Source of the DNA: a virus
Virus record (IMG/VR): IMGVR_UViG_3300043640_000137
Location: 24,525 to 88,524 of that record
DNA length: 64,000 bases
Reading direction: 5' to 3' (one strand)
Shown: in pieces, positions 19,838 through 64,000 of the stretch
How the letters are laid out: the number at the start of each line of letters is the position of its first letter
How positions within the stretch are numbered: position 1 is the stretch's first letter
The notes under the pieces: model-generated
Databases searched by the model: none
What the model saw: only the letters and a program-made list of their open reading frames with translations
What the model was told of the DNA's origin: nothing
Program-made: the position numbers and the translations under genes

Positions 19838-20062
19838 TTACCGCCGGCCCCGATTGGTCGCGGCTTCACGGCGCTTGATCTCGGCGAACATCTCGTCGCA
19901 TTTCAAATTGCCGTGCTTCGTGACGAAGTGGCTGAGCTTCATGCGGCCGTCGATCCGGCGCACCTGATCCCGGCTGCTGGTCAGGACGGTCAGCCGGTCG
20001 AACTCGGCAAGCTCGGACTCGGTGTACGAGATCATCTCTACGGTTCTCTGCTCGGCCATCAT
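19838..20062 (-). CDS. Hypothetical protein
   Basis: ATGA-coupled to the integrase stop; RBS GGAG. Confidence 0.5.
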   Translation of the reverse strand: MMAEQRTVEMISYTESELAEFDRLTVLTSSRDQVRRIDGRMKLSHFVTKHGNLKCDEMFAEIKRREAATNRGRR

Positions 20063-39780: not shown

Positions 39781-39845
39781 GTCGTCTCTCCTGGTTTAGG
39801 ATATTAAATTTGTGAAAGTGACGTTATGGCTACTTTCCGTAGCTG

Positions 39846-43310: not shown

Positions 43311-43505
43311 GTCAGGGAGCCCGCGCCACAGGAACCTTGCCCTCGCCATCGCATGCCGGGCAGTCCACGAGTGACGGCGCGTCACCTTCGAGGAAGTCCA
43401 ATGCTGAGCTTACGAGGCCGGTGGCATCGCAGGCGGGACAATCGACAGGAGGTACATTGGGTTGCGTCATGATGAAAGTAACTTAATAGCTACTTTCACT
43501 CCCTG

Positions 43506-45789: not shown

Positions 45790-46128
45790 TTAAAAGACGC
45801 CGGCTTCAATGAGATCGAGAGTCGTCTGCGAATATCGGATGATGCCACCGTGGCGGATCAGCGGCGGCATGCTACGGTTGCGAAGCGTGCGTTCCGTGCA
45901 GTTGAGCCGCTTCGCTGCGAGAGCCGGCGTCAGAAGCTTGTCGGTGCCGTGGAAAATCGCTTCGAGCAGTTCGGCGTTGCAGCCAAAAGCCTTCGCGATC
46001 TGCCTCACTGTGTATTTCGGGTCCATCGACTCCGACCAGTTCGGGTTGCCTTGGCCGGTGATCGCTCGTAGGACCGTCCGCTGGTGACAGCCAAGTGAGG
46101 CAGCCACCTGATTCAGTGAGACTTGCAT
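45790..46128 (-). CDS. Multi-HTH transcriptional regulator (repressor candidate)
   Basis: Three HTH-like segments; RBS GGAG; its promoter spacer contains a perfect AGCTAC-N5-GTAGCT palindrome. Confidence 0.6.
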   Translation of the reverse strand: MQVSLNQVAASLGCHQRTVLRAITGQGNPNWSESMDPKYTVRQIAKAFGCNAELLEAIFHGTDKLLTPALAAKRLNCTERTLRNRSMPPLIRHGGIIRYSQTTLDLIEAGVF

Positions 46129-46196
46129 ACCGTCATCTCCCTTTTAACGAACCTTAACAGCTACATTCCGTAGCTGTCAAGCTACATTAAATGGGG

Positions 46197-46451
46197 CTAG
46201 ACTCGGCCTCGGCCGCCGTCGCAAATATCCACCACGAAGCGCAGTCCCATCGCAATCACCTGGATCGCTTCTTTGCGCATCGCATCGAGATCGCGGCGCT
46301 TCTGGTTTGTCCAGACATGCGCCTTTAACTCGTCGAACTCTTCGTGCATGATCGCGAACTGCTCATGCGCGCTATTCGCAGCGACCGGAAACATCGCATA
46401 CGCTCGTTCCAATTCCGCGACGGCTTCCGCCGCAACCTCAGTCGCGCCCAT
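46197..46451 (-). CDS. MazG-like protein
   Basis: 'SAHE..AIMHEEFDEL..V..KEAIQVIAM'. Confidence 0.65.
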   Translation of the reverse strand: MGATEVAAEAVAELERAYAMFPVAANSAHEQFAIMHEEFDELKAHVWTNQKRRDLDAMRKEAIQVIAMGLRFVVDICDGGRGRV

Positions 46452-48049
46452 GATCGCTCTCCTGGTTTTATATACTGCAACCTATTGTCGGCTGGCCCCG
46501 ATATAGACCGCGGGCTATTTACTGCTCGCCTTCGCCGCGCTCCTGCGGCGGTGCTTCGTACATCAAGCCGTCCATCCGAAGCTCGCGGTATCCCTCGCGC
46601 GCCATCTTCACGCATTCGGAAGGGTCGTGGCCCTCGCCATACTGCTCATCCAGCATCTCAGCCATGGCGCCGGCCAGGACCATGATCTTTCTCTCGAACT
46701 CACCCTCGCTGTGGCACTCATGCGGGAAGATGTCGGCCTGCTTCTTCAGAACACCGCCGACCGCGAGCTTCCGAGAGGACTCGACCTCGACGCGGATGAA
46801 CCGCCGTCGCCCTACCGGCCGGGTTTTGTCTTCCATAAGCCTGACGTTGACGATGCTCATTTGAACCTCCTTAGTTTGTGTCTCGTTGCCGAGCGAGGGC
46901 GCCAGTATCGGCTTTGATCTGCCGCATGGCTTTACGGATGATCGAATCGTTGCGACGGCGCATCTCCCGGTTTTGTCCTGGGTGCGCCATCCGCTGCTGA
47001 AGGGCCTCCCGGCGTTCATCAAGGCGCAGTTTGCGATCGTCGTTATTCATTTCCGTCTCCGATTGATGGCGCGAATAAAGATGACCGTAACGTACGCCGG
47101 CCAGAGCAGCACGACAAAGGTCCAGGAGAGATAGTTCGTCTTGTGTCCGAGCATCTTCTGCCCGCGCAAGCACAACTCTCCGAACGCGGCTCCAATCGTC
47201 AGATACGCCGCGATGCTGAGGAGCCACTGAGTCATGATCGGTAGTGGTCCTTCAGCAGATAGAAGTCGTTCGCTGTGATGACTACTTGGAAGTCTTCGCC
47301 CTCCGTCACCACGGCGCTGGCGAGCGCGCGGATATCGTCGATGGCGCCTTCCTGAAGAAAGCAGTGCTCACGCGTAATCGCTTTGATCTCTTCTGGCATG
47401 CGCGTGATGATCTGCGAGATCGGCACGAACCAGAGCCAAGGTCGCGTGCGTCGCATCGCTCGCGCCACGTCCCTCGCGATCTCATCCCGCTCTTGCTTGA
47501 TCCGCCGCTTCACTCGATCACAAGCATCGACGATCTTGTGCGCCGGGAGGAAGGCGTGTGTCTCAGCCGTCATCTTTGACCCGCTTCACGAAGTAGCCGG
47601 CGCCGGCTTTGTAGGTCAGTTCGAAGCTGATACCTTTTTGGACGCAGTGGTTGAGGACGTGGTGCAGCAGCGCGCCGATCTGGCTGTGCATACCGCTGCG
47701 GCCCTTCTTGTCGAAAGCTTCGACCGCTTCCTTGACGGCCTTTGCCGTTGGCCGTGGCCGTGCTTGCAGTGGCATGTAGATCATTCGTCAACTCCCGCGC
47801 AGTCTTCACATTCTTGGTTGCCGTCGTCGTTGCTCAGTCCTTCGGTGTCGCACCACCAGCCGCAGATCGAGCAGAGGAAGAGCATCGAGTCGAACTCCGC
47901 TTCGTCCTCGTGCGTGAGCCCGTTCTGCTCCATGCCGAAGAGAGAAAGCAGCGCGCCTTCGAGCGAGCCGCAGGAGCCGCGAAGATGGTTGCAAAGCTCT
48001 TCCATCTGCGCGTCGGTGAGCGCGTGGTCGCGCCGCGGAACCGAGTTCG

Positions 48050-48733
48050 TCATGCTGCCTTCTTCCCTTCCCAGAATTGGGTACTATGTCCTTCCCACCG
48101 CCGGTCCCATACGAACCAGGAGAAGTTGTGCCGCGGCCCGGCGTCGGGCCTATTCGGGTCAAGACCAGCTTTCACCCGTCGCTGCCGCTTCTGATCTTCG
48201 GTCAGCCACCAGTCCCATCGCGGCCGGCTGGTCAGCACGATCTCGAAAGCGAACGGCACCTTCTTGAATGGGCCGAAGGGCTGACGATCGAAGTAGCTCC
48301 GGCGCTTGCCGGCGTGATTGACCTCACCGCGAAGCAGCGCAGCGACTGTCTGCACCTTCGGCATCGACAGGGCGTGCTCGATGAACTCGTCTTGCAGATT
48401 GTACGGAGGGTTCATGACAATCGCTTCGACGCCTGGATCGAGCAGTTCGTCGTTCAAGAAGTCGCGAGCGCCAGCCGCGCGCACTGGATAGAGCGTTTCG
48501 TCGAAGTCGCTCATGTCGAGGTCGCAGGCGATGATGTCGCTGTAGGCGATGCCGTCGTCTTCCACGAGCACGTCGATGATGTCGCCACGGCCGCATGCCG
48601 GTTCGAGGATCAGCATGCCGGGCAGGTTGAGGCGGCGCATCAATGCGCGGGTCATCCAGTGCTCGGTGTAATACTTCTCGCCTTCGTTGCGCTCGAAGGC
48701 ACTCTGCACCATCGCCTTGTCGCGCGTGATCAT
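48050..48733 (-). CDS. DNA adenine methyltransferase
   Basis: 'YYTE', 'LEPACGRG', 'MNPPY'. Confidence 0.85.
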   Translation of the reverse strand: MITRDKAMVQSAFERNEGEKYYTEHWMTRALMRRLNLPGMLILEPACGRGDIIDVLVEDDGIAYSDIIACDLDMSDFDETLYPVRAAGARDFLNDELLDPGVEAIVMNPPYNLQDEFIEHALSMPKVQTVAALLRGEVNHAGKRRSYFDRQPFGPFKKVPFAFEIVLTSRPRWDWWLTEDQKRQRRVKAGLDPNRPDAGPRHNFSWFVWDRRWEGHSTQFWEGKKAA

Positions 48734-50360
48734 TCGTCGTCTCCGTCACCGAAGGCGGCGTTGGTCGTCCCCATTTCGTGGAGCGGGACAGTGCGCGTTA
48801 CGTATCCAGGGCCTCGGTTGCCGCTCGGGCCACGCTTCACGCCTGCCGGCGGCGCTGGACGTGGCTGAGGCGCAGCGACGGGCTGTGCTGGTGCAGCGGG
48901 CGTCGTCACGGGATCGGTGGAACCTTGCTGCACGGCAGGACGGCCCTCATCCGCTGCGATGGCTGCTGTATCGGCGATCAGGTTGAGCATCTTCGCGAAG
49001 CGCGCCGGCTCAGATATCAGCGCGCCTACCATCGCCTCGTGCTCAGCCGTGGCGTTTTCAGGCATACCGGCGACCGCAGTCAGAAGCTCGACGCGGACCT
49101 CGTGCTTAACGGCATCGGCTTGCGACGCGAAGTCGCTCGTCGAACCGTCTGGGTTTTTCACCCGATAAACCTGGACAGCCTCGACCATGATCAGTTCAGC
49201 CGTGATCCTGGCACCGGGACCGCGAGTGCGAAGTCGTCGATTGGATCAGGCTGCGCGGATTGATCGACGGTGCTCAGCACAGCGATCCCGTGATCGATGT
49301 AGGCGCAGTCGAGGCCCGTCGAGCCGTCGCCGAAGGTCTTCAGCGGATCGAGGCCGAATGGTGCGACGATGGCGGGCCACAGCGCCCGCGTGGCTTCGCG
49401 AAGCAGTGCCTGCCGAGCCGCGACAAGCTGCTGGTGCTTCATGTCGAGCAGTTCCATGTCTTCCTTGAACTCATGCACGAGACCGTGGAACGCCTTGGCG
49501 GCGTCGAGCGCCATGCCAGTCAAAAGAAACGTCTTTGGATTACCCACGATCGTTCTCCCTCTTCTCAGTCTGCAAGACGCTATCGACGATCTGCTCGGCC
49601 TGCTCCCGCGACATCTCAGGGTGCGCAAGCATGATCTCACCCACCGCCCACGACCGACGTGTCTCGTCCGTGTTGCCGCCCTTGGAGATCGCGTTGAGCC
49701 GGCGCTGGGCCATCCCGAGTTGCGAGAAGGTGAGTCGCGTCTGCGTCATTTGTCGGACCTCGGGATCGGTGGGATGTCGAGCAGTGATGCAGCAATCGTC
49801 TTCCGGCTGGACCGGCGCTTCGGAAGGGAAGGGCTGCCGTGGTTATCGTCGCCGCGGTAATCGAGTGCGCGCTCGCGTTGCTCGGGCGTTAGCGTCGCCA
49901 GGAAACCAGTCTTCTCGGCGAGCACCTGCGGCTTGCGCTTCTCTCGCTCGATGGCGAGGTTGATGATCTCAGCGCTCCGCGTGCCGGCGATCATCTGCTA
50001 CCCCTTGACGGCCATGCCGCCGATTGGCTCGCGGCGTGCGGGCTGCGACGGCTGTTGCGGGGAAAGCTCTTCGTCTGGGACCAGCATGTCCATGACGACC
50101 AGGACGTGTGGCGTGCCGACGCCGGCACCGCCCATGACAACGAACGGCTCGCATGTGTGCAGACGCCAGTTCGCCTTGCCGTGCTCTTTCAGCAGGGCTT
50201 GAAGCTCTTCTGGCGATGTGAGGAAGGTGAGATAGTCGTAAGCCATACCAGGGAACTTATAGAGCCATTCCCCGGCTGTCAAGCTACTTTATATAGCTGT
50301 CGAGGGTCTTCCCAATAAGGTTGAGCCCCGCACGGGTATCAGCCGCACGAGGCTCGAATT

Positions 50361-50508
50361 AGAAGGCACCCTGCTTCTTGCTATCATAAAAGCTATTGCC
50401 CTCTCTGAAACTGCGCATTGTCACTTATGCTATCAAAACAGATTTTGCGCAGCTTCAGAGAAGGCGGGAGCGCAGAGACACTTGCTATCAGGCGTGCAGT
50501 TGCTCCCG
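50361..50508 (-). ncRNA. TIGR-like stem-loop guide array, three tandem units
   Basis: On the - strand each unit reads stem-GCAA-N9-TGATAGCA(A/T)-N9-(T/C)G-stem; units at 50465-50508, 50403-50460 and 50361-50404. Confidence 0.85.
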
Positions 50509-50523
50509 GTTCTCCTACGCCTT

Positions 50524-51132
50524 TCAGCGTATATCTTTCGCCTGCTTGATGATCTTCTCGACCGCCTTTGCGGTGAACTCCTGCGAGACGCGGCTCTCGG
50601 AGTCCGGCAGGCCCGCGCACAGTTGCTCGGCGATAAAGCTGTGCTCGCGGCCTCGACGGCCCCACGCCTTCAGCTTCTCTTGCGTCATGTCGCCGATGTA
50701 GCAGTCGAAGTCCGCGATCTTGTAATCGACGAACCATGCGAGCGCCGTCGTAGCGCCCTGCGTGTGCGCCACTGCTGCCGCTGCCTTAGCACCGCGCGTA
50801 GCTGCTGCCGTCGATTGGCCGCGGGCCTTGCCACGACGAGGGCCTGACTGCCGGGGTGTCTGCGCCGGGTTCAACTCCGTCTCGCGGGCGTCCATCTTCC
50901 TACCGGCCATGCGGGTGATCACGCCCAGGAAGTCGTCGTCGATCTTCAGCGCTTGCGGGCACTGGTCGATGATGGCGACCGCAAGGTTTGCTGGCGACCG
51001 GCTGTTTTCAAGTTCCTGATCGACGAGGTTACGGAGCATCGACTCCGCGTTCTCACGCGCTTTCTGCGCCGTCGATTTCTCCGCACGATGGGCGCGCTCG
51101 ACAGCGCCCGCATTCTCTATACTGGTCTGCAT
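50524..51132 (-). CDS. Hypothetical protein embedded in the TIGR-like locus
   Basis: 202 aa; RBS GAGAGG; guide-like units on both sides. Confidence 0.7.
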   Translation of the reverse strand: MQTSIENAGAVERAHRAEKSTAQKARENAESMLRNLVDQELENSRSPANLAVAIIDQCPQALKIDDDFLGVITRMAGRKMDARETELNPAQTPRQSGPRRGKARGQSTAAATRGAKAAAAVAHTQGATTALAWFVDYKIADFDCYIGDMTQEKLKAWGRRGREHSFIAEQLCAGLPDSESRVSQEFTAKAVEKIIKQAKDIR

Positions 51133-51162
51133 AACTTAGCCTCTCGTTGCTTTACACACTGG

Positions 51163-51879
51163 TTAAAAAAAAAAAGTGGAAGGCGCGGAATCTGTTGCTA
51201 TCAGCGTAATCTTGAAGTAGAGCACAGCGAGCTTGTTGCCCGGTCGCATCGCGGCGCCCTCACCATCGTCAGCCCGCGCGTAGCTGTTCTTCGGTGCGAG
51301 GCCGATGTAGCGGCGCAGTCCTTGCGGCGTGGTCTTCTCGACCGTGCCGTCTTCGAGTTCGAACTGCCGCGGATCACCGAGCAACCCGAGGATACATCCG
51401 TACCCGTAGAGGCTGACGCCCTTGGTAGCGTCGATCCAGCCGTCGCCCGCCCATCCAGCGCAATCGCCACCGGGGAGCTTTGCGACGATCTTCTCCATGG
51501 CGCGACGCGACTTCTTCTCGGCCGCGATCAGTCCGTCGATCGCCGGCTGTGACGCGCGCATCATCTCCGCCGTAGCTTCGTCCATCTCTTCGCCGCCGGG
51601 GAGTCCCATCGGCTCACCTTTTTCGTATCGAGCGAGCGATTCCTCGACCTGTTTGAGCTTCGTCTTGCGCTCGTCGTCCGGCAGGAACGCGTTGTAGCCG
51701 ATCTGGAACGCAACGAAGGATTCGTTCTGATTGATGAGGCGCATCCGCGCAACTTCCGCGCGCTTGTTAAGCCGATACCAGCGCTGAAGGTCTTCGAGTT
51801 GCGCCGTGAACGGCAGCCCCTCGATCGCCGCGGGCTCGGGCTTCACAACTTCCAACTTCGGCTTGCGCTTGGTGGGCAC
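51163..51879 (-). CDS. Nop-domain / IS110-like RNA-binding protein (TasA-like), probably C-terminally truncated
   Basis: GTG start with RBS GGAGAG; coiled coil, then 'KGVSLYGYGCILGLLGDPRQF..GLRRYIGLAP' (IS110 Transposase_20/Nop signature). No DEDD RuvC or HNH domain is visible. Confidence 0.75.
   Translation of the reverse strand: MPTKRKPKLEVVKPEPAAIEGLPFTAQLEDLQRWYRLNKRAEVARMRLINQNESFVAFQIGYNAFLPDDERKTKLKQVEESLARYEKGEPMGLPGGEEMDEATAEMMRASQPAIDGLIAAEKKSRRAMEKIVAKLPGGDCAGWAGDGWIDATKGVSLYGYGCILGLLGDPRQFELEDGTVEKTTPQGLRRYIGLAPKNSYARADDGEGAAMRPGNKLAVLYFKITLIATDSAPSTFFF
51176..51215 (-). ncRNA. Partial TIGR-like unit overlapping the 3' end of the Tas-like gene
   Basis: AGATTACGC-TGATAGCAA-CAGATTCCG-CG-CCTTCCAC; the left stem is missing. 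Confidence 0.65.
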
Positions 51880-51904
51880 TTGGCTCTCCGTTTCAAAAAA
51901 GATC

Positions 51905-51946
51905 GAACGCAGTCTACAAATTGCTATCACATGACATATTGCGTTC
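51905..51946 (-). ncRNA. TIGR-like unit in the 5' leader of the Tas-like gene
   Basis: GAAC-GCAA-TATGTCATG-TGATAGCAA-TTTGTAGAC-TG-CGTTC. Confidence 0.85.
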
Positions 51947-51955
51947 TTGAAAGAG

Positions 51956-52000
51956 AGCTTATGAAATATTTCCGTCCCTGTCAAGCTACTTTATGTAGCT
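51956..52000 (-). promoter_or_regulatory. Sigma70-like promoter with operator, driving the TIGR-like locus
   Basis: TTGACA-N17-TAAGCT with AGCTAC-N5-GTAGCT abutting the -35 box. Confidence 0.75.
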
Positions 52001-53608
52001 AAAATCCTATTCTCGAATGTGCCATCCGCAGCGCGCGATACTGGTCTTCGCGCCACGTCCAGTGTGCAATCGAGACGACGGCCTCGATCTCGAGTCCTCG
52101 TAGCGTCTGTTCATCGTACGCGAACACGGCGCGCGGAGCTTTGTCAGCGTGGTCCCGACACCAATCGTCAAACTGCCGACGCGTGCCGGCGATGACCGCG
52201 ATCTTCGCCGTGCTCATCCGAGCTTGATCCTATCAGCTATGCGGTTGAGCCCGAAACGGTATAGGCGACGGCGCGCCCTGAACATGATCTTCCACCACGC
52301 CCACCGCAGCGGAGGCAGCAGATCGGGCTCTTGTGGCTTGGGATCGGGCCGCGCGCGGCGCTGGTAGCACGACTCCATGTACCCGCATTCGCATCTTTCA
52401 GCGAAGCGACGGCACTTAGGACAGAAGGTAAGCGGGACCGCGATCTTGCTCATAGGCTGCGGAGCCTCTTAATGAAGGACTCGGCACCCGTGTTATACAT
52501 TTTCGAGAACAACCGGCGCTTCCACAGATTGCGCACGTCCATAGTCCATTCGTCATCGGGGATCGCGTGACCAAGCTCTTTCTCGGCCTGGGCGCGGATG
52601 TAGTCTAGTGGATCGCTCATGCGGAAGCGCCGGTCCAACGGTCATGGATTTGGATTAGCGAAACGATCACGCGATTGTCGTAGGTGTCACGGCATTCCAT
52701 GTCCTGTAACGACCCGTCTTGCTGATAGATGCGATACCATATGCGCCCGTCTCGACCTTTGATCTTCGAGAAGTCGTAAGGATCGCAGCGTTCGTATTCG
52801 TCAATCTTCTTCGTCATCGCCCGCCTCGTAAGCAATGCAGTCGCAGCTTTCACATGCCGTCGATCCGGGATACTTCGTGGCCGTGTTCTTCTTCACTGTG
52901 TCCGCATTCGCAAGCCATGATCTATCCCTTAGTCGAAGCTCGGGTAGCCGGCGTCGATCACGGCGTACTCGATACGGTTGGCGACCACTTCGAGCGCGTC
53001 GCCGATAGTCACGATATCCTCACTGTCTTCCTTTGATTCTCGGGCGACGTCCCTGAGTATGTCGCGCACGATCTTCAGCGCGTCGTATGCGTCCATCATG
53101 ATTCGTCTTCCACCTTCTTGACCCATGTATCGGAATCGGGCTCGTAGACGTACCCTTCCCGCTTCAGCCTTTCGATGGTGTCGCGCTCCCGATGAGCGGC
53201 GTGTGCCATCTGCCGAAGATAGTCGGAGAGCTTCGCGGTGAACGTCATGCTTCGGCTTCCGTGGCCTCTTCTAGGACGTTCGCGGGCATAAGCATCGTCA
53301 CGTCAGCGACTCCAATTCCTTGATGCGCTTCTCCAAGCGCTCCATGTACTCGGCCGCTTGGCGCAAGCCCGGCGGGTTGCCGCCGTGAACTCGAAGCGCC
53401 TGCTTGACTGTCTCGACATGCGCCGGATCGACCTTGAATGACTCCGCGGGCACGCTACCGGCCACAATCCGAAGCCCGCGCTTTTCGAGATGATGCCGGA
53501 CGTTGAGTGCCGTCACCCGGCCTTCACCGTCGCACACAGCGTCGGACAGCGCCTCGTTGATGTCGTCGTCCATGACCGCGATTGCGTCTTCGTTAGCCAT
53601 CTTAACTC

Positions 53609-53794
53609 CTACCGATAAAGTTGAATGTGCGTGGTCTGCAAACCCGCAACGCCGTGGCCGAGACGCGTGAGCCATGTCTGGAACTCCTCGATCGACAACG
53701 AGTGCGCTTCACACGCCGCCTCGATCGAGATCGCACCATCCTGAACTGACTTAACCAGTTCCGCTTTCCGCCGTGCCGTCCACCGCTTTTGCAT
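53609..53794 (-). CDS. sciP: SciP-like CtrA inhibitor (DUF1153)
   Basis: 'RWTARRKAELV..V.DG.ISIE.AC..HSLSIEEF.TW..HGVAGLQTT.IQ.YR' matches the SciP pattern along its length. Confidence 0.85.
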   Translation of the reverse strand: MQKRWTARRKAELVKSVQDGAISIEAACEAHSLSIEEFQTWLTRLGHGVAGLQTTHIQLYR

Positions 53795-54965
53795 GATGTA
53801 ACCTATGAACGAACTTTCCGTGACTGTCAAGCTACTTTATGTAGCTGTTTTATTGTTTTCCCCAAGACCTGACGATAGCCATGACCGCTTCTCTCGCCTC
53901 TGGGCATCCATCCCTGCACGCCCTCGTCATGACGTAGATCATGGCCGCGCTATCGTTCGGGAAGACGCGGCTCGCCCCATGGAACTCAGCGTCAGCATCA
54001 TCCTCACGCGGAGCGATATCACGGTTCGCGTGAAGTTCGAGGATCGGCTCTTTCTCCGTGCCGATGTTCACGACATCCCAATGCACGCGGTACGGATCGT
54101 GAGACGGCACCGGACGCCGGCTGAGATGAAGCGGTGACTGCCTGATCTTCATCGGTGCTTACTCACGTTGCTGGGATCGAAGTTCATCTGGTAGCCGGCG
54201 ACGTATGGCGTCACGCCGATCCAATCTGGATACACGGAGCCGCCACAGCCCGACACCGGCCCGACGGCGGTGATCCTGCCGACTCCATAGCCGGGCACGC
54301 GCACTTGCTCACCGAGGATGATTTCGTCAAAGGCAATCACTTCAAGCCTCCATAAAGTAGGATCGCGGTCGTCAAGCCGCCGATGAGAATTATAATCGCC
54401 GCGAGATGGTAGTACCTCATTTTTGCGCTCTCGCTCCTGGGCATTCGTTGCTCATTCGCCTGGCCGGATTCGGTGGAACCTTGCCGCACGGTGCCTCGCT
54501 GCTTGTCGAAGCCAAGTCGCAAACCGTTCTGCGTCTACCACCAGCGGCGACTTCTCAGCGAGCCACACGGCTAGCAGGTCCATGTAGCTGTTGCCCTTAC
54601 CCAGGTGCGATACTGCGTGCGCAAGGACTCGGCGCTCGATGTCGGCGAAGTCCGCGTCGATGATTACGATACGCGGCTGTTCCCGGCCGGCTCGGTGGAA
54701 GCGGCTCTGCGATTGGATGATGTCGAGGGTTATCGCGTCGAGGGCTTGCTTCTGGTGCGGAAGCAGACGGCCGGTAGGGCTCTGCCCGGAATCGGTGGAA
54801 CCTTGCTGCACGGCGAGATTGGATTCGGTGGAACCTTTCTGCACGCCGCCTAGCAAAGCGGCATAGAGATCGCGCACCAGCATCTCAGTGATCAGCGGCA
54901 GCCGCGCCCTCTCTTCCGCGTCGAGCAGGCACCACGCATTGGCCCGCCCCAATAGCTGCTTCATG

Positions 54966-55409
54966 TCAGCCATAGACGATATCCTTCAGAGCGACGCATT
55001 GCAGAAACACATCGGCCGTGGTCGCGTCTTCGTTGTCGTTGAGGAAATCGCCGAAGTGCTGGCCGTACTTCTCCGCCATGAGCTTCAGCCCGACCTTGAA
55101 ATCCGCTTGCGTGATGCGTCGGCTTTGCGGCTCGCCCTCTTCGTTGTACTCGCCGACTTCGATCTCGAAGAGGCTGCCATCGCCGAACAGCGCCGGGCAG
55201 TCATACCAGTTGTCTGACTCGGAGTCAGCCTCCGCCGCTGCAACAGCCTCCCGCCCCGATAAAACTTCGGAGAAGTGGTTGCCGGGCTCCCATCGAAGCA
55301 ACAGCACGCTTCTGCACCAGTAGTTGCTTCCGCCTTCGATTGCCGTGACCATAAGGTCTGCAATGCGTCGCGGCGCGATCTCGATCTCAATTTTCATTTG
55401 CTGCTCCAA
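54966..55409 (-). CDS. Conserved acidic phage early protein
   Basis: 'TAIEGGSNYW' and C-terminal 'DATTADVFLQ..DIVYG'. Confidence 0.6.
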   Translation of the reverse strand: MEQQMKIEIEIAPRRIADLMVTAIEGGSNYWCRSVLLLRWEPGNHFSEVLSGREAVAAAEADSESDNWYDCPALFGDGSLFEIEVGEYNEEGEPQSRRITQADFKVGLKLMAEKYGQHFGDFLNDNEDATTADVFLQCVALKDIVYG

Positions 55410-57950
55410 CTGTTCATCCCTTCGGGCGCGTCGATGCCATACCCGCCACGCTCCACTTTATCCTTGTCGGGAAGCTGGGCGATATACGCCTCGGCTTCGG
55501 CAATGGTGCCAAAGCGCTTTAGCACCGTGAACCCTTCGCTCTCTTCGTCAACCACGAACACGGGTTTAAGCGTCATTTGCTGCTCCCATTTATCGAGCCA
55601 ACCTTTTTGGTCCGCTTCCCTAAGCACGTACTCCACCATGTAGGCGAGGTATCCTGCGTCGTTCTCTTGCCCGAGCTTGGCGTTGATGCGCTCCATGCTC
55701 GGCTTAATGATCTCGGACACGCAGCGAGCATTAAACCGGCGGAGTGGCGTAGGGTGATCGGCCTTGCGGCATTCCTTAAAAATCGCGACCGCTTTGTCGA
55801 TCTCATCCTGGGTCAGGAAGTCGTCCAACGTCACTTGCTTGTCTGCCATACTTTCTCTCCCAATGAAACTCTCTAGCCAGCTACTATACGCCCTGGCCGG
55901 AATCGGTGGAACCTTGCTGCACGCGAGCGACAAACGCGTCCAGCCCTCTTCGCTTCTTGCGCGCGGCGGCGCTGTGCCTCGCCTGCGTGCGCTTTTTTAT
56001 CTTAGCTTCATGCGCCGCTAAGTGCGCGGCTACGGCCCTCTCCTGCTCTTGATCTTGCACTAGAAAAGCTCCGCTAACTCTTGCTTCAACTTCGCGTCGT
56101 CGTCCTGCACGGGCTCCGCCTTGCGCTTACGCTCGCGATCCTCGGCGTCGATGGCTTTGCAGAACGCGATCCAGTTCGCTTCGGCACGCTGAAAGCACAA
56201 CACGTCATCGGGATTATGCCGCGAACTCGGCGCATAGAACTCAGTGGGCTTAGCCACGGGCCGGCTCCGATTCGGTGGAACCTTGCTGCACGGCGGCGCC
56301 GTGATCATGCTCGATGCCGTAGGGCGCAAGGCACACTTGAAGGAAGCCATTCGTCTGCCGGCTGACGTTCGCGCACACCTTGCCGAGCACTGGCGCCAGC
56401 GCCTCGCGGCATGCGGCCTCAAAGCAATCGTCACACATTCCGACTTCCTGGGTCTGGCATGTGACGTGCTGCTCGCCGCAGACTTCGCAATAGGGTAGGT
56501 CCATCACACAGACTCCTTTGCAACCGTCTCCGATTCGGTGGAACCTTGCTGCACGGTGTCCTTCGGAAGCAAAGGAAGGTCGATAAAGCCGGGCCGCGCG
56601 TCAGGCGCTTTGAATAGCTCCCAATCTCCGGCCGCGAGGCGGAAGGCGCTGACGGAGCCGTGAGCGAGGTCAAGCTCTATCAGCGTGCGCCGTATCAGCC
56701 CGTAGCCCGGCATCTTGTCTGCCGATATCCCAAGGCGGACGAAGCCCTGAGACTCAAGCTGCGATGGATCGTAGCTCTTCGGGCCAGAGTAAAGCGTCGT
56801 GTGGCCTTGCTCGCGGGCGCGCTCGAACATCGCGTCCATCTTGGCGTTGCGGCGCTGGGCGCCGGTCATTGTCCGCCAGCCTGGGAACTTAGACATTGAC
56901 CGTCTCCGATTCGGTGGAACCTTGCTGCACGGCGGATACGCTCATATCGAACGCTCCTTCTGTTTGGCCAGCCAATCGAACCACGCCAACGCGCTCTGGA
57001 CGGTTCTGTAGCGACCGCCGTTGCAGTGGCAGGCTTGCGGCTCCCAACCGGCGAAGTCATAGTTGCCCTCGGTCGCTGTCCGGTAGCGCACAGATAAGCG
57101 CCTCTCCCAACAAACCATATCCTCGGGTATCCACTCTTCGCGCTCTTGCCCGTCAGAAGTGATAACCGCAAGGCTGGCGTTTAAGTACCTGACCGCCTCG
57201 AACCCCGCGCGCTGCATCGCTTCAAGATGCGAGGGCGGGAGCACCGGGACGGCCGTCGCTTTGCGTTTGCTCATGGCTCAGCCCTCGATCTTGGCAAGGA
57301 TGGTGCGCAGGATCGCGCGGTCGGGATCACTTGGATGCTCAATCTGCGGAACGCATCGCCGCACCCAGGCCGCAAGCTCGCGCAGCGTCGCCGCGTCGAG
57401 CGTGACATTGCCGCGTGGATCACGCGTGAAGATATCGTGGCCGATGCGGATGTTCCCGCTATCGCGCACGGAGTAAACCAAGTCGTGGTATCGGGCGTCC
57501 CGCTTGTCGCGCTCTTTGCGCGCCGCAGCAAGATCGTCGGTTGTGAACCGAGTGCGCGTCCATTCTGACGCCGCGATGTGCCGATGGCAGAGAACGTATT
57601 GACCGCTCATTTGTCGCTCCCATTCGCCTTCGGCTCGGGCTTCGCGGATTCGGTGGAACCTTGCTGCACGTCTTCGTCTTCATCGCTTTCGGGATGGTGG
57701 ACGAAGACCCAGGCCGAGACCCAAACGCCTTCCTCGGTGTAGCTGTAGAGCGGCGCGTCATCGATCTCTAAGTCGTCATTGACGGCGACTTGCTCGGCGT
57801 ACTCGGGATACTTGTCACCGTAGGTTGCGAGGATCGTGAGAACCTCAGCTTGCGTCAGGCCCGAGCCCAACGCTTCGCGCACCATGCTTTTCAAGCGGTC
57901 ATTGTCAGCCATTCGATCGACTCCTGATTCGGTGGAACCTTGCTGCACGC

Positions 57951-58382
57951 TCAGCGATACCAATATTGCACGCCGTCGAAATCGACTTGCTGATAGTCCA
58001 TCTTCAATTCGTCCGCCGCGCGGTCCCAATCGATGTAGGACAGCGGCCATTGCGCGTCGCGGCCGATGGCGCCGATGTCTTCGGCATGCTCTTGGGCATA
58101 GTCTTGGAAGGATGAGTCCCGGATGAGCGTGACCGGATACCAAGCGCCGTTCCATTCGTGATCGCCGCCATTGCCGCGAAGCTCATCCAGAAGCGCGGTC
58201 AGATTGGCGCGCTCTTGCGCCTCGTCAGTCAGGTCAACGCCTTCGACGCCGGACACTTCGCCTTCGCCGCCGATTGACGATTGCGCCGAAAGGTCTTCAA
58301 GCTCCGTTCCGATTTCCTCGACGCGTGCAATCACGTCGCGCACGTCGATATAGCCTTCGGAATTACTAATGCTATCAGCCAT
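57951..58382 (-). CDS. Acidic ArdA-like antirestriction (DNA mimic) protein
   Basis: Very acidic; 'FQDYAQEHAEDIG..YIDWDRAADELKMDY' resembles the ArdA C-terminal domain. Confidence 0.55.
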   Translation of the reverse strand: MADSISNSEGYIDVRDVIARVEEIGTELEDLSAQSSIGGEGEVSGVEGVDLTDEAQERANLTALLDELRGNGGDHEWNGAWYPVTLIRDSSFQDYAQEHAEDIGAIGRDAQWPLSYIDWDRAADELKMDYQQVDFDGVQYWYR

Positions 58383-59148
58383 CACACGCTCCCGGATTCG
58401 GTGGAACCTTGTTGCACGGCGTTCTCGCTCCGCGCGTCCTTCAGAACCTTTATGCTCTCTCGCAGCCATTGCCAGCCGGCCGTCATGCTGCCCTTGCACT
58501 CGGGTTCGAAGAGCACGATTGCGAGCGCGAGAAGCTCTTCCATGTCCGTCGCCGCGCCAATCAGGTTGGCGTTCGCAACCGCCTGTCCCGGCAACAGGTG
58601 CGAGCGGTCGGTGTCCGTAACCAGCACGCCGTTTGCATCTCGAATGACGGTGACTTGAACGGTCCAAGGACCGGGTGAATGTTTAACGGGCATCGTTCGA
58701 CTCCTTGCACTCGGCTTCGTTATCGGTGTCGCGCGATATGCGGTCGCGCGGTACGCCTAGCTCGTCTGCCATCTCTGCCGCCGATTGCTGCGCCCATTTT
58801 TCCAAGGTCGCCGCTGGCACGGGCCGGTCATTCACGGCGACCGATTGAGAGTCGAGCGGATGGTCGCCGGCCGTGTATTCTTTGACGGGCTGGCCGTCGC
58901 GCCCGTATGCCGTGACCGCGTAGCCGTGGCCGGTCAGGTACCATTGAACGAAGGGCTTCATTGCCAATCCCCGTATCCCGCGCAATCGGGCTGCGGCTCT
59001 TCGCTGTCTTCCGCTTCCATCGCGTCAAGCCAGCCGTGAATCCACGCGTAGCTGTTCTCCGCTTTCGAGGAAGATTCGGACGCGTACCGGCCATCGACTC
59101 CGGCCATGCACGCTTGCCAGCCCGCGACATACGCTTGCGCTTCGGTTG

Positions 59149-59850
59149 TCATGACCGCGCCCATCGTTGCTTAACCACAAGGTCACAATCGGAATAGATA
59201 TCGGTAAGCTCCGCGAGCAAGGCTGCGCATTCATCCGGCGTTGCGTTGCGCGTCTCATTAAACCAAGAGCGCGAGCATTCCGAGTGCTGGCCGATGTGCG
59301 CGTAGCACACGGCCATTCCGGGGTTGGCGCTCAGCGTAGGGAACACGGCGCTAACGTCGCCCTTGAACTTACCGGCGCACTCCACACGGAATAGAACCGG
59401 AAGCTTCTCTTTGCCTGACGCGGCCTTGCGCGGTTGAGTCGTTCTGTCGCTGACGATGGCGCCAGTCCTGCCAATCGTGACGCGCTGGTTAAAGCGATGC
59501 TTCCCTGCCGGCGTTATGAGCCGAAAGCCGCGAACGGACTCAACCCGGTATCCGGGGCGATGCTCTGTCAGCGCTTCATTCATCCGGCCGCGCGTCAACA
59601 TGCTATAGAAGCCGCCGCTGTCGAGCGTCACGTTGCCGCGTGGATCACGCGTGAAGATGTCGGTGGAGTGAAGGCGCACGCGGAGCGTTTCGTCGCTCAG
59701 CCTATATTCGATTGTGTTCCGCGCCACGATCCGCGACGTGATCACTTCGCAAGGCTTGCCGCTTGCCTGTATCTCGCTCGCGATCTCGGCGAGCATGCCC
59801 TTCTTACTCTTGCGCGCGATGGCTTGCGCGGAATACTGACCGTAACCCAT
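59149..59850 (-). CDS. Phage early protein (two-domain hypothetical)
   Basis: 'RLHSTDI..LDSGG..LTRGRMN' plus 'AVFP..CYAHIGQHS'. Confidence 0.5.
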   Translation of the reverse strand: MGYGQYSAQAIARKSKKGMLAEIASEIQASGKPCEVITSRIVARNTIEYRLSDETLRVRLHSTDIFTRDPRGNVTLDSGGFYSMLTRGRMNEALTEHRPGYRVESVRGFRLITPAGKHRFNQRVTIGRTGAIVSDRTTQPRKAASGKEKLPVLFRVECAGKFKGDVSAVFPTLSANPGMAVCYAHIGQHSECSRSWFNETRNATPDECAALLAELTDIYSDCDLVVKQRWARS

Positions 59851-60099
59851 GACATCAATCTCGCTATCGCTTTCGGGCGATGCGGGAGGCGCTGGTATCA
59901 CGCCTCCGCGCAGTCTTGCCCGGATTGAAACTCTTTCTCTCAGTGGATTGCGCGCTTGCGCTGCGGTCTACATGATCGGCTCCCGTTCTCTCTCGCTTCC
60001 TTGAAAGAGACAGTAGAGCTACTTTCCGTGGCTGTCAAAAAGAAAATGTAGCTCGGCGAATATATTCGTCGTTAATTTCTTAACCTATATCCGGCCATG

Positions 60100-60129
60100 A
60101 AAAAAGGCGCCTCGATTTCTCGGGGCGCC
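60100..60129 (-). terminator. Rho-independent terminator
   Basis: - strand GGCGCCCCGA-GAAA-TCGAGGCGCC-TTTTTT. Confidence 0.7.
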
Positions 60130-60740
60130 CTCTGCCGGAAGCATGCTTTTCTAAGGCATGCTTTTTTTTTCTATCACTTATCTAGGCATAGATCAGCCCA
60201 TCGTCGCCTCGGTCGCTGGCGTGGTCGCATCGCCCATGTTCAAGTTGTTGTCTTTCCAGTAGCGGAGCACGTTGCAACCGACCTTTCGCTGCACAGCCTT
60301 AGCGCATAGCTCTTCAAGCTCTGCATCAATCGCTTCTGTGATCTGGCCCGAGCTTGGTTCTGCCGCCGCTAGTAGCGTATAGTCGAAGCGGAAGACGGCA
60401 AAATCATCGCCCGCAACGCTTGCCTCGAACGCATAGGCTTTGTCCGCTTCCTCCGCCGTGTGCCACCAATCGAAGCCGCCGCCGCCTGCCCGTGGACCGG
60501 GATTGACGTACTCCGTCGCGACGCAATAGACCTTCTTCCCTGTCATGACGATAGACCTCTCTTTGCTGATTCGGTGGAACCGTGCTGCACGTCAAATAAA
60601 TCCCAAGCTTGATCGACGCGTTCCAAGATTCGGTGGAACCTCGCTGCACGCCGGCCCGATTCGGTGGAACCACGCTGCACGGCGCCACCGTCCGCGCTCG
60701 CGCTCGATCTCTCGCTTTTGAGATAATTCCGCTCGATCGG

Positions 60741-60817
60741 TAAGGTTAACGATCCATTAAGGTTAACGCGCATTAAGGTTAACGATCCATTAAGGTTAAC
60801 GCGCATTAAGGTTAACG
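60741..60817. promoter_or_regulatory. TAAGGTTAAC x5 array containing CtrA-type TTAA-N7-TTAA boxes
   Basis: Copies at 60741, 60758, 60774, 60791 and 60807; TTAACGATCCATTAA at 60746 and 60779. Confidence 0.65.
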
Positions 60818-63800
60818 CCCGGCCAGCTTTCATTTACCATTCCTCGCCGCGAGCGCGGCTACCGCTTCCGGCGCCGTGTCTCTGCCGCCTGCCCGTAGGA
60901 TGTCCGATATCGCCGCTAGGACTGCGCTAGGCGTCTTTCCCGCGCGCTCGCGCATCGTGCCTGCTATCCGGTCTAGGGCGCCACATGCCGCCATGCGCTC
61001 CGCTCCGCCGCGATCAAGCTCGCCTAGGAAGCCTGCCGCTAGGTGCTGGCGTATGCCGGCGCCCATATGCGGCCGTTGCTCGATTGTGTACCGTGCCTTG
61101 CCCGTGTCCGCATCATAGGCGACATCCACGGATATCGCACCGCGCCACGATGTAGCCAGCGTGCGCAACCCTGTCTTTTTGTCACCTATGCGCGAGACTG
61201 TCCCGGTTCCGCCGCGAAGCGCGCGGCCGGTAACGCTTCCCTTAAATTCTGCCATGCCTCGACTCCTTGGGGCGAATGGTCGCCCGGTATCGTTTCGTCG
61301 CCGCAAGGGAAGCTCGCCTAGCGCGTTCTGCTATGCCATAGCCAGATTGCTACGCCTCCCAGACTTCGCGCCCCTTGGCCTTCCCTTGCGATCTAGCGGT
61401 TCAAGTGACCGTGCGAGCCGAGATAGCCCGGCCTGCCGGCAATCGCCCCGTTAGCATCGTGACGCGGTGCCGGCGACGCGAGTTGCTCGCCTATGGCCTT
61501 TAGCATTGCATCCCTAAGCCGGTCAGAGAATGCCGCCATGATCGCCGCGCGCGGAGTGGTGCCGGCCGCGATGTCGCGATCCACTTCCTCAATCCGCGCT
61601 TAGGTATTGCGACAAGGCATAGTGATTGAACGGCACTCGGCGCCGTGCTGCGCTCGCTTCCTGGCGCGCATCAAAGCGCGTTGCAGCGTGAACTAGCGCG
61701 GCGTGTATCGTGCCGCCGAATAGCTTGAACGGTTCCGCTGTCATATGTCTATCCCGCGTCGCTCCGCTTCGCCGCGCGCAATCTCCGCGTATTCATCACG
61801 GCCGGCGCCGGACTCCTTTTCATAAACGCCGCGAACTTGTGAGTCCGTGCATTGCCGGCAATAAAGCCGGAACCCTTCTCTATCGCGCCGTGTCATGCGG
61901 CTGACCCCTTAGAAATAACCCGGATCGTCGGCAACGGCGCCGACATTATCGGCAATCCAGCAACTAGCCGCGCTGATAAAGTCTAACGCTTTGGCGTTGC
62001 ACGATGGACAATCGATCGTGCCATCTGTGCCCAAATGATCATCTTCGCATTCGAAGCCGTCAGGCATGCCGTGCCAGCCGAAATTTCGCGCGACACTGGG
62101 ATAGTCCCATTCCGCTTGCACTAGAATCGTGTTGCTTTCGTCGCGTGCATCGTGAGTCCCGTCTGCCCGCTCGCGCGCAATGATGTAGCAGCAAGGCGCG
62201 AAGCTTGAGTCGCGGCATAGGTGAATGAGGCTCACTTGCTCGACTCCTCTTGCTGGCAAAACTCGGCGGCAAGTTTTGTCTGTATCTCGCGCTCGCTTAG
62301 CATCCCGGACGCGCGACACGCGACACCGTGCGGCTTATCGTGCGGTTTCATCGTGCCGAAGCCCTTAGCGCCGCAATGCGGGCACTTCCAAATGGTGACG
62401 CTCATTTGTAAACCGCGATTCCGTTTGAGTAGCAGGACTCCACGCTGGCGCCTTCCCGGATATCGCCCGGCCGAAGGATATAGAGCGCGGCGCCGCGCGG
62501 GTCGCCTTGAATGTAGAAACTCAGAGTCGGATATCGCGCCATGATCGCCGCAAGGCGTTTCAGCGCCCCTGACTCTCTGTCACCTATCGACTCATACTTC
62601 GCGACATTGAGGCCATGGACGTGCCGCTCTAGGAAGGGCTTGCCCTTCTCGTCATGAATAAACGTGCCGTTCTCTTTTCGGCCGCGCGTTATGACCCATG
62701 ACGAATAGTCATTCGAGTCGCCGCACTCTAGTTCATGCCAGCGATGCAACGTCATGGACACGCGGCGAAGCGCTTGTGCATCGTCATACGCGATGCCGGC
62801 CGCTATCAGTCTGTCAACGCAATCGGAAAGGCTCATGCTTCGACTCCTACTTTGCGCGCGCGGCAGAACGAAAGCCGCATGCGACCGACTTTGAAAAACC
62901 ATATCCCGCCAACCTTGCGCGCGGACGGCGCAAGCGCCTTTAGCTTCGCGCTCATTTTCCCGACTCCTCAGTAAAGACGGACTCGGCCAGTGCCTTGGCG
63001 CCTTTAGCGCTTTCGCAAAGCTGCCCGTAAACGTCGCGGCCGAAACGCGAGATCGTACTCGCGCCGTCCCAAACGCTCGCGCCCGCATGCCATTTCGTGC
63101 CGCGCGCGGCCCTCTCGCCGAATAACCCTTTAGTGTGTTCCGGCGCCGCGAATAACGTAACATTAGCGCCCATTTCGGCGCGCCATCCTGCGCCGTCTTT
63201 AAGCCATGGGAACGTGCTACTAGCCGTATCCGACTCCTAGCTAAGAATGGTTGCCAAGTCCGCCGCGTCTTGCGCGGCTCGCTCCGCTTCGATGCTTCGC
63301 GCGGTTGCCGCGTAGTCCCTCGCCGCGCGCAAAGCGATATCGTGCGACTCAACCGTGTATCGATAGATCGCCGCGACGATTGACTCCGCACCATCGAGCA
63401 TGTTGCAAGCCAAGCCTGCCGCGACAAGCTCGCGCGAAGCGGCATGGAACGCATTACCTATCGCCGCTTGCGTTGCTTCCGGCGCCGCCGCGAGCATACG
63501 CGCCCAATGCTTATCAACATTAGTTAGGCTCATTTACATCGACTCCAAGGCTTCGATTTCCCGCCGCGCTTCCTTAGCCGCGCCGGCAGAGTCGCAGTCC
63601 CAAGAGACAACCATTTTTTCCCAAGCTATGCAAGCCGGGCGATTCATAGATCGTGACGGATGCGCCGCGCTTCGTGCCGCCTGGAATCGTGTATCGTTGA
63701 ATGTAGGCGACGTGCCGCGCCGTGCGGATAGCGCGGCTCATTCGTCAACCCGCGCAACAAGGTTAGACGCGGTAGGGCATCCCGAGCCCGCGCCGTCGCT

Positions 63801-64000
63801 CATGCGAAAAAGCGCCGTTGCCTTCTCGTCGCCGATTGAGACGCATTGCAGGTATGGACCGTCACTATAGGTGTAGGGCCTTGATAGCGCGCGCCAGCGC
63901 ACGCCCCGATTATCGATGTACGCGCAACCCGGCTCGACTCTCACGCCATTAGCCCGTGGCGGCGACGGGAAAAGACCCGTGTTGTTTTTCACTTGCTCGA

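Follow-up and report, generated by a model that had tools for sequence, protein, structure and literature searches.

We analyzed the right-hand 64 kb (the window; positions 24525-88524) of an 88,524-bp virus genome, IMG/VR record IMGVR_UViG_3300043640_000137, which is rated 100% complete and whose early region carries fourteen copies of a short, oriented sequence element. The genome encodes a tailed phage, with a tape-measure protein and tail proteins that include a host-specificity protein of the gene-transfer-agent type, and further gene products are a T5-A1-like protein, a DNA polymerase, an exonuclease, a helicase and a primase. The sole tyrosine recombinase found is an integrase (20059-21231; coordinates are those of the window unless stated otherwise), more than 27 kb from the motif copies. 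As an integrase is present, the phage is probably temperate. Coding lies on the minus strand from position ∼19 kb through the rest of the window. Gene models were derived from a codon-usage score trained on the long open reading frames (ORFs) of the phage and are our own calls, not curated annotation.

The nearest protein matches are in phages of Rhodobacter, Dinoroseobacter, Caulobacter and their relatives, with identities that reach only about 48% (A1-like protein) and 39% (tail protein). The G+C content is about 61%, and a single DNA run from a soil metagenome, probably the source, contains the stretch; no RNA run is listed with it. We infer that the host is a soil alphaproteobacterium. Megablast against phages returned no relative at the nucleotide level, and the top tblastn matches, all in unrelated phages, reached at most 53% over a whole protein (71.6% over half of an ArdA-like protein). 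No loci related through the ArdA-like protein, the primase, gene 60193-60546 or the motif-bearing protein P0104 (58382-58693) were found.

Fourteen copies of a 24-nt asymmetric element

An earlier sequence-only reading had reported fourteen same-orientation, near-perfect copies of a nonpalindromic 21-bp motif on the minus strand. A search with this 21-mer at up to three mismatches gave exactly fourteen matches between 48914 and 60681 (eight exact, five with one mismatch and one with two), all on the minus strand, while 100 dinucleotide shuffles gave a mean of 0.01 matches and never reached 14. Across the whole 88,524-bp record, the reverse strand holds 14 copies and the forward strand none, and a backwards control also gave none. 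The count, the coordinates and the orientation are therefore as first reported, but the length is not: by information content the conserved block spans 24 nt, CGTGCAGCAAGGTTCCACCGA(A/T)TC. When both genome strands were scanned with a weight matrix, the 14 copies scored 38.2 to 44.6 bits and nothing else exceeded 12 bits. Five copies are perfect 24-mers, and all 14 are confined to 48911-60681, with none in the other 76 kb of the genome.

Positions 1 to 5 and 11 to 21 of the motif are invariant and are followed by one variable base and TC, so that substitutions are confined to positions 6 to 10 and 22 to 23. Three of the four changes in the 3′ block fall at position 22, which is the N of a GANTC sequence present in 13 of the 14 copies; copy 48914 differs also at position 23, by which GANTC is lost. 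The motif has no dyad symmetry or hairpin, either as RNA or as DNA (alone it folds at −0.8 kcal/mol), and eight copy contexts share no RNA fold (z-scores of −1.4 to +1.6). Rfam 15 covariance models gave no match at an E value of ≤1 over 46000-64000, and no antisense partner of 11 nt or more was found on either strand of the phage. The motif contains no sigma-70 pattern or promoter hexamers, and compared by eye it matches neither the sigma-54 nor the extracytoplasmic-function (ECF) sigma factor consensus known to us. The spacing between copies is irregular (31 to 5556 nt), the "spacers" are genes and there is no hairpin, and we accordingly rejected a CRISPR array, as the sequence-only reading had done on the same irregularity.

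Exact and degenerate motif patterns gave only lone chance matches in IMG/VR and metagenome contigs, with misfits at the variable or flanking bases; these collections may omit the phage's own record. In 185,579 species genomes, the 21-mer has no exact match. Phage PhiJL001, checked for an analogous repeat, has only promoter-like and operator-like motifs of its own, and a narrow literature search found no description of the motif. No paralogous genes or cassettes flank the copies. The sole paralogy found in the early region is a 43-nt segment that is 93% identical between 57395-57437 and 59620-59662 (21 amino acids, 67%), in genes 57278-57610 and 59149-59850.

Placement, reading frame and level of selection

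Nine of the 14 copies end 11 to 50 nt before a start codon, compared with an expectation of 14% of positions (P ≈ 2 × 10−5 by a binomial test; 5 × 10−5 by simulation). The remaining five lie 80 to 400 nt from any start codon. GGAG or GGGAG begins 0 to 2 nt after the motif in four copies, and the extra similarity seen among some copies extends only downstream, on the side of the Shine-Dalgarno sequence and start codon: the flanks of copies 56911 and 56272 agree at 15 of 20 positions there, and copies 55903 and 54470 have CGGCCAGG in common (copies are named in the text by the first position of the 21-mer; the 24-nt coordinates are in Table 1). Five copies that had been placed at gene ends just before the next ribosome-binding site (56535, 56911, 57929, 58398 and 60571) indeed end 27, 11, 13, 12 and 21 nt from the next start.

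Inside genes, eight of nine copies are read in a common frame as VQQGSTES (P ≈ 0.003). Four had been recognized from the outset, namely, 48914 (VQQGSTDP), 54792 (VQQGSTDS), 54825 (VQKGSTES) and 57650, the last of which is also a gene-end copy lying 36 nt before the next start; the frame is likewise used at 55903, 56272, 56535 and 58398. It is open for at least 32 codons upstream in 13 of the 14 copies, compared with 4 and 5 of the 14 for the other two frames. Since the motif is open in all three frames, this bias is not imposed by stop codons. The motif falls within the last 11 to 20 codons of six or seven genes and lies in apparent linkers in two.

The differences between copies are mainly nonsynonymous (Q to R, K or H; E to D), with a single synonymous change, and three or four copies are not translated in the VQQGSTES frame: 57929 comes just after a stop codon, any reading of 54470 and 60630 would be in another frame, and 60568-60681 is probably a leader. 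Both observations point to selection on the nucleic acid, and the copies outside the frame mean that a peptide function cannot cover all copies, whereas a nucleic-acid signal can. The codons GGT, TCC and ACC are invariant across all 14 copies in a genome that prefers G or C at third codon positions (G+C fraction at third positions [GC3] of ∼0.75 to 0.85). We regard the 24-nt element as a cis-acting recognition sequence kept at the nucleic-acid level. The frame bias would then have one of two sources: either no peptide other than the polar, flexible one can be accommodated, or copies must share a phase to recombine with one another.

The motif-bearing protein P0104 has a single homologue, P0105, in a collection of 5.8 billion proteins. 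The two are 54 to 57% identical overall, with ∼35% identity in the N-terminal half and 100% over residues 54 to 77. P0105 ends in ...ARS-VRQGSTESGSAS (VRQGSTES) and the phage protein in ...ARSENAVQQGSTESGSV, so that the junction is the same and the change falls in the same variable block. As the tail is kept at the same place despite the divergence of the proteins, the element is old and has been maintained at this junction. The homologue of gene 60193-60546 has an N-terminal extension with ...SSTEL..., a weak hint that a motif-like leader may be read through there.

Table 1. Motif copies, promoters and associated genes (window coordinates unless stated otherwise)
Feature	Position	Strand	Context
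Copy 1 (CGTGCAGCAAGGTTCCACCGATCC)	48911-48934	−	Within ORF 48730-49188, where it opens a Pro/Ala-rich linker and reads VQQGSTDP; a methyltransferase-like gene (48050-48733) starts 177 nt on; only copy without GANTC
Copy 2 (variant CGTGCGG...)	54467-54490	−	3′ end of ORF 54452-54973, in another frame (RAARFHRI); 45 nt ahead of a small membrane-like ORF (start ∼54421)
Copies 3 and 4 (tandem, 33 nt start to start)	54789-54845	−	Inside ORF 54452-54973; read VQKGSTES-NLA-VQQGSTDS
Copy 5	55900-55923	−	C-terminal tail of small ORF 55884-56060 (VQQGSTDSGQGV, then stop); 50 nt before gene 55394-55849
Copy 6 (perfect)	56269-56292	−	C-terminal tail of gene 56250-56504; GGAG directly after; next start GTG 56257, 11 nt off
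Copy 7 (perfect)	56532-56555	−	C-terminal tail of gene 56504-56896; next start (56504) 27 nt on
Copy 8 (perfect)	56908-56931	−	Intergenic, in a 17-codon mini-ORF with its own AAGGAG (MSVSAVQQGSTESETVNV, then stop); start 56896 11 nt on
Copy 9 (perfect)	57647-57670	−	C-terminal tail of gene 57607-57912; next start (57610) 36 nt on
Copy 10 (perfect)	57926-57949	−	Directly after the TGA of the ArdA-like gene, untranslated by that gene; start 57912 13 nt on
Copy 11 (variant ...GCAACAAGG, the one synonymous change)	58395-58418	−	C-terminal tail of gene 58382-58693 (P0104); 12 nt ahead of the start of the ArdA-like gene
Copies 12 to 14 (tandem, 59 and 31 nt start to start)	60568-60681	−	Leader between the TTAA-box iterons and gene 60193-60546; the copy at 60571 ends 21 nt before the ATG
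Promoter TTGACA-N17-TACTGT	60002-60038	−	Heads the operon holding copies 2 to 11; next family member 53830
Promoter family, window	39813-39849, 43473-43509, 46144-46180, 50246-50299, 51948-52001, 53798-53851, 60002-60038	−	
Promoter family, genome coordinates	4473, 6700, 11035, 20304, 36846		
ArdA-like anti-restriction protein	57951-58382	−	PHROG 25535, E value 1.5 × 10−48
Acidic 117-residue ORFan	60193-60546	−	Preceded by the triple motif; one homologue known (P0002, 57%)
Five iterons CGTTAACCTTAAT	60741-60822	−	16/17-nt period, upstream of the triple motif; adjacent units make TTAA-N7-TTAAC
P0003, 112 residues, three tandem helix-turn-helix units	45790-46128	−	First gene after the promoter at 46180
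P0004, SciP/DUF1153-like, 61 residues	53609-53794	−	NCBIfam E value 2.4 × 10−18, below the equivalog cutoff; first gene after promoter 53830

Promoters and operon structure

The phage has a promoter family of host type, consisting of TTGACAG, about 17 nt and TAnnnT, often with AGCTAC-N5-GTAGCT palindromes. Members occur on both strands and before early and late genes, those on the minus strand of the window being at 60038, 53830, 51984, 50282, 46180, 43509 and 39849, and the palindromes or their half-sites lie beside or inside them. They probably represent sigma-70-type promoters of the host kind, coupled to the operator of a dimeric regulator. Ten copies (54467-58418) lie in the single promoter-to-promoter unit 60038-53830, which consists of about 20 small ORFan genes, including the one for the ArdA-like protein. 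The best matches of the ArdA-like protein (45 to 53%) are in Mycobacterium and Gordonia phages, not in alphaproteobacterial ones. Gene 60193-60546 is followed by an intrinsic terminator (∼60100-60137), a hairpin of −25 kcal/mol with a U-run. Searches of 70 proteins against Pfam and 30 against PHROGs revealed no RNA polymerase or sigma factor, some small ORFs of the structural arm being outside the scans, and the only ORFs longer than 650 residues are those of the tape-measure protein, the tail protein, the DNA polymerase and the primase, which leaves no unexplained large ORF.

A candidate DNA-binding protein

Besides the integrase, the only DNA-binding proteins found were P0003 and the SciP-like P0004. 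P0003 has no sequence match to solved structures; its AlphaFold model has a predicted local distance difference test score (pLDDT) of 96, and the last unit, a winged helix of the Xis/BldC type, matches the RdfS excisionase, BldC and Pukovnik Xis with Z scores of 6.4 to 7.0 over ∼48 to 58 residues. Domains of the BldC type bind direct repeats head to tail, at ∼9 to 11 bp per domain (PMC5859096), and D29 Gp36, a BldC-like phage protein, is reported to repress the genes downstream of its GC-rich site (PMC12266134). A single chain containing two or three of these units would recognize a nonpalindromic site of ∼20 to 30 bp with blocks one helical turn apart. The motif has this anatomy, and P0003 is a candidate binder, though only as a lead. 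The P0003 family comprises 97 clusters. The product of gene 60193-60546 was also considered as a binder and dropped, being acidic, without a domain and poorly modeled (pLDDT 46), and a TIGR-Tas match of 51163-51879 was disregarded at 16 bits against a cutoff of 100 bits.

A proposed polar operator, and the alternatives

Our leading explanation, held tentatively and short of real confidence, is that the motif is an asymmetric DNA operator that imposes a polar, stoperator-like block on transcription, with P0003 as the candidate binder. The element sits where the packed early operon tolerates it, in C-terminal tails and interdomain linkers, and its coding copies almost always occupy the single frame that yields the harmless polar peptide VQQGSTES. 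A phage-encoded protein would bind the double-stranded site asymmetrically and, once bound, would have a polar effect on host RNA polymerase reading leftward. The resulting block to elongation would silence or shut off the early anti-defense operon (copies 2 to 11), and the three tandem copies would guard the stand-alone gene 60193-60546.

Several features favor such an operator. All 14 copies are co-oriented with transcription, the site is nonpalindromic and free of hairpins, and the copies are all-or-none: they score 38 to 45 bits, with nothing between 12 and 38 bits. About one helical turn separates the two invariant blocks, which is the spacing to be expected if a protein contacts successive grooves, and the tandem copies are 31 and 33 nt apart, i.e., about three helical turns. 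The coincidence of the variable position with the N of GANTC is a hint that DNA or its methylation state is recognized. The probable temperate lifestyle, the phage's own host-type promoters, the lack of an RNA polymerase or sigma factor among the proteins scanned and the concentration of ten copies in one promoter-to-promoter unit are also consistent with a polar operator, as are the presence of P0003 as a candidate binder and the retention of the element in a relative whose protein is only ∼55% identical.

Other observations weigh against this explanation. No copy overlaps the TTGACA(G)-N17-TAnnnT promoters, in contrast to L5-type systems, in which an operator lies at the promoter; the nearest copy is 1.6 kb downstream of 60038, and the first 1.6 kb of the operon is free of copies. 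Ten roadblocks in 4 kb would be denser than in any described stoperator system. The start-codon proximity of 9 of the 14 copies and the downstream-only similarity point equally to an RNA signal linked to translation. As for the binder, the first recognition helix, HPRTVLRA, is nearly invariant across the P0003 family, a poor fit to a site private to one phage, and two other phage records that encode P0003 homologues, G001 (93 kb) and G002 (30 kb), lack a comparable dispersed motif, which leaves the link between P0003 and the site unproven.

A signal in the polycistronic early mRNA, acting single-stranded just upstream of the translation-initiation regions, is possible though doubtful. It could be an operator for a translational repressor or activator, an rRNA-pairing enhancer or the cleavage site of a sequence-specific endoribonuclease, and would resemble the start-associated sequences of Cluster K phages, the T4 RegA/RegB sites or the T7 RNase III sites. 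This explanation accounts best for the distance of most copies to a start codon (11 to 50 nt in 9 of 14, against the 14% expected) and for the similarity between copies that runs solely downstream, into the Shine-Dalgarno and start region, with GGAG or GGGAG within 2 nt of the motif in four cases. The three copies in the leader of gene 60193-60546 and the location of every copy on the transcribed sense strand also agree with it, but neither a structure nor a partner goes with it: there is no conserved fold, Rfam match or antisense partner, and no RNA-binding or RNase domain was found in the scanned proteins. Moreover, five copies are 80 to 400 nt from any start, and it is left unexplained why the variable site is the N of GANTC. 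We know of little precedent in phages for a 24-nt unstructured RNA read by a protein.

That the motif is an in-frame recombination joint is unlikely. The motif would provide a short homology by which early-gene cassettes, each made of a tail, a Shine-Dalgarno sequence and the next gene up to the next motif, are exchanged, deleted or fused between or within related phages, any regulatory role being secondary. A related form, also unlikely, is an integron-like array of early anti-defense genes, in which the 24-nt linker in constant codon phase would allow relatives to exchange, fuse or lose genes, tails and ribosome-binding sites with frames and translational coupling intact and with no need for a dedicated site-specific recombinase. 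Frame constancy is what such a joint needs, and both its measures, the 8 of 9 in-gene copies and the long open frame upstream of 13 of the 14 copies (at least 32 codons, compared with 4 and 5 copies for the other frames), are best accounted for in this way. The same holds for the 17-codon mini-ORF at 56911, which looks like a deletion stub, and for the relative P0105, a mosaic that is ∼35% identical in the N-terminal half and fully identical over residues 54 to 77 and that ends at the motif. Copies also lie at gene ends or domain linkers, and the motif-to-motif units measure 263 to 1078 nt with one to three ORFan genes each; the promoter-stem-loop cassettes (PeSLs) of T4-like phages, for which such shuffling has been proposed (PMC2839356), are a precedent. 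No direct trace of exchange was seen, however: no paralogous cassettes were found, and the contigs of the single DNA run that holds the phage break at three copies, as assemblers do at repeats, but show no joint at any motif copy. With 24 nt the stretch of homology is small, genes between direct repeats would be lost by deletion, the site has no recombinase linked to it, and neither the tandem copies 31 to 33 nt apart nor the three in the leader would be needed. A joint and a regulatory role are not mutually exclusive.

It is quite unlikely that the copies are internal phage-specific promoters that recruit host RNA polymerase in a modified or activator-loaded form, perhaps with sensing of GANTC methylation, and give each downstream gene its own start, with tandem promoters before gene 60193-60546. 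Strong conservation, a common orientation and a position just upstream of genes are the pattern of T7-type promoter sets, the triple copy stands ahead of the terminator-bounded gene 60193-60546, and the 3′ end, ACCGAATC, is loosely like the −10 part of the phage's own promoters. Yet a separate family of host-type promoters is already present, and no phage RNA polymerase or sigma factor was found in the 70 Pfam and 30 PHROG scans; a T7-type set proper was rejected because these scans found no phage-encoded single-subunit RNA polymerase. A start downstream of the motif would omit the Shine-Dalgarno sequence in four copies, the 31- to 33-nt spacing is too tight for tandem promoters of the host polymerase, and copies 48914, 54792 and 54825 lie deep in ORFs with no start nearby.

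Other kinds of polar DNA site, such as strand-specific nick sites (as in T5, phiKMV and tf), Tus/Ter-like fork barriers, Chi-like protection or decoys for a host factor, are very unlikely. The motif is asymmetric and strictly confined to one strand, its length is similar to that of Ter sites, its plus strand contains GGTGG and the phage strongly avoids certain restriction sites. None of these roles would explain why the copies favor cistron junctions and one reading frame, neither a nickase nor a Tus-like protein was detected, and the absence of the exact 21-mer from the 185,579 species genomes makes a site for a host factor unlikely. A function of VQQGSTES itself as a short C-terminal tag on early proteins (a degron or a sorting or packaging signal) is highly improbable, for although the frame is common to 8 of 9 in-gene copies, the peptide is C-terminal in six or seven proteins and VRQGSTES is kept in the relative, three or four copies are not translated in frame, changes are mostly nonsynonymous, GGT, TCC and ACC show no synonymous drift in 14 copies and the nonoptimal GGT is retained despite the high GC3.

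The sequence-only reading had offered a menu of roles. The anatomy described here is that of a transcription-oriented cis signal at cistron junctions, which fits stoperator-like, RNA-level and joint roles, none of them proven. Nothing supports the proposed sites for DNA entry or partition, and antitermination is unlikely because 14 copies far exceed the nut/put-type systems known to us, none of which uses nearly so many. Frame constancy, the 24-nt extent with GANTC, the host-type promoter family and the integrase of a probably temperate phage go beyond that reading.

Comparison with known systems

The motif acts most like the stoperators of Cluster A phages and looks most like the start-associated sequences (SAS) of Cluster K phages, while lacking defining features of both. 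As in stoperator systems of the L5 gp71 type, many near-identical asymmetric sites, with an orientation tied to transcription, lie at the gene junctions of a temperate phage's lytic operons. In L5, the site is read by a monomer with two DNA-binding domains (PMC9283540). The motif differs in its length (24 nt rather than 13), its range (∼12 kb of the early region rather than both arms, or early and late operons), its location mostly in coding tails and in one frame, and its host, here presumably an alphaproteobacterium and there an actinobacterium. No homologue of the L5-type repressor was detected in the phage.

The SAS and extended SAS (ESAS) of Cluster K are asymmetric repeats of one orientation, found among nonstructural genes just upstream of starts and absent from the host, and their function is still unexplained (PMC3203893). 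The motif shares the single orientation and the restriction to nonstructural genes and is absent from the species genomes searched; upstream stop codons, too, can lie in or near the SAS repeat. The SAS is 13 bp long, contains the Shine-Dalgarno sequence AGGAG and lies 3 to 7 bp from the start, whereas the motif has no AGGAG, lies 11 to 50 nt (nine copies) or 80 to 400 nt (five copies) from a start and is translated in a fixed frame.

In T4-type phages, the PeSLs are repeated regulatory motifs that flank small nonessential ORFans in plastic early regions, where recombination shuffles genes (PMC2839356). PeSLs are sigma-70 promoters and stem-loop terminators in intergenic DNA, unlike the present motif, which has neither promoter hexamers nor a stem-loop (−0.8 kcal/mol) and lies within coding sequence. 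With BldC, D29 Gp36 and Xis, the C-terminal unit of P0003 shares a predicted winged-helix fold; proteins of this kind bind asymmetric sites head to tail, and Gp36 lowers the expression of downstream phage genes. Those proteins have a single domain and oligomerize, whereas P0003 has three units per chain; BldC sites are also AT-rich and few, and P0003 is only a candidate binder of the motif. Integron attC arrays consist of small promoterless genes of one direction, transcribed from one promoter, with a conserved element at each 3′ end, and the string of same-direction small genes with an element at their 3′ ends is alike here. In contrast, attC sites are imperfect palindromes of 57 to 141 nt that fold single-stranded and need IntI, whereas the motif is 24 nt long without a dyad or fold, and the sole integrase is the distant one at 20059-21231.

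Other features of the genome

The TTAA-box repeats upstream of the triple motif look like what we take to be CtrA-type boxes, and SciP is an inhibitor of CtrA. Together, these boxes and the SciP-like P0004 suggest that the phage is wired into a host cell cycle regulon. Further dense TTAA-box repeats, comprising seven TTAACCAT sequences together with 95-nt tandem units, occur at genome positions 5000-5900, in a 1.8-kb divergent control region. The unrelated 93-kb record G001 has similar TTAA-box clusters; besides its P0003 homologue, it holds at least 12 tRNA-like T-loop words and TTAAGGTTAAC clusters near both ends.

Some 6-bp restriction palindromes are strongly avoided in the phage genome: GAATTC, GGATCC and CTGCAG are each absent from the 88.5 kb, where ∼12 to 29 would be expected from base composition, while GTTAAC occurs 29 times. 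Genes for a protein with a dATP/dGTP diphosphohydrolase N-terminal domain, a dCMP deaminase and a nucleoside 2-deoxyribosyltransferase are clustered on the minus strand (23504-24136, 24353-25093 and 27080-27616), and this nucleotide-metabolism trio may be a sign of modified bases in the phage DNA. The DNA polymerase (31976-35065, minus strand, 1029 residues) carries an insert of an endonuclease family at residues 556 to 767 (PHROG 93), possibly an intein or a homing endonuclease. A plus-strand gene that follows the tail genes contains, at 15180-15479, four to five tandem repeats of 60 nt that are 70 to 75% identical.

Significance

To our knowledge, dispersed oriented regulatory repeats are known almost only from actinobacteriophages, as stoperators and the still-unexplained start-associated sequences. 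The motif belongs with such repeats of phage early regions and is a clean example in a temperate, probably alphaproteobacterial phage, set apart by new twists: its 24-nt length, its single-frame embedding in coding tails and its GANTC methylation site. If the motif is a polar operator, stoperator-type silencing would extend beyond the mycobacteriophages, and the element would serve as a compact control part that depends on orientation. A recombination joint, in turn, would reveal how phages maintain modular arsenals of small early genes. Under either explanation, the motif marks about nine co-regulated early ORFans, including the ArdA-like anti-restriction gene, as candidate anti-defense genes.

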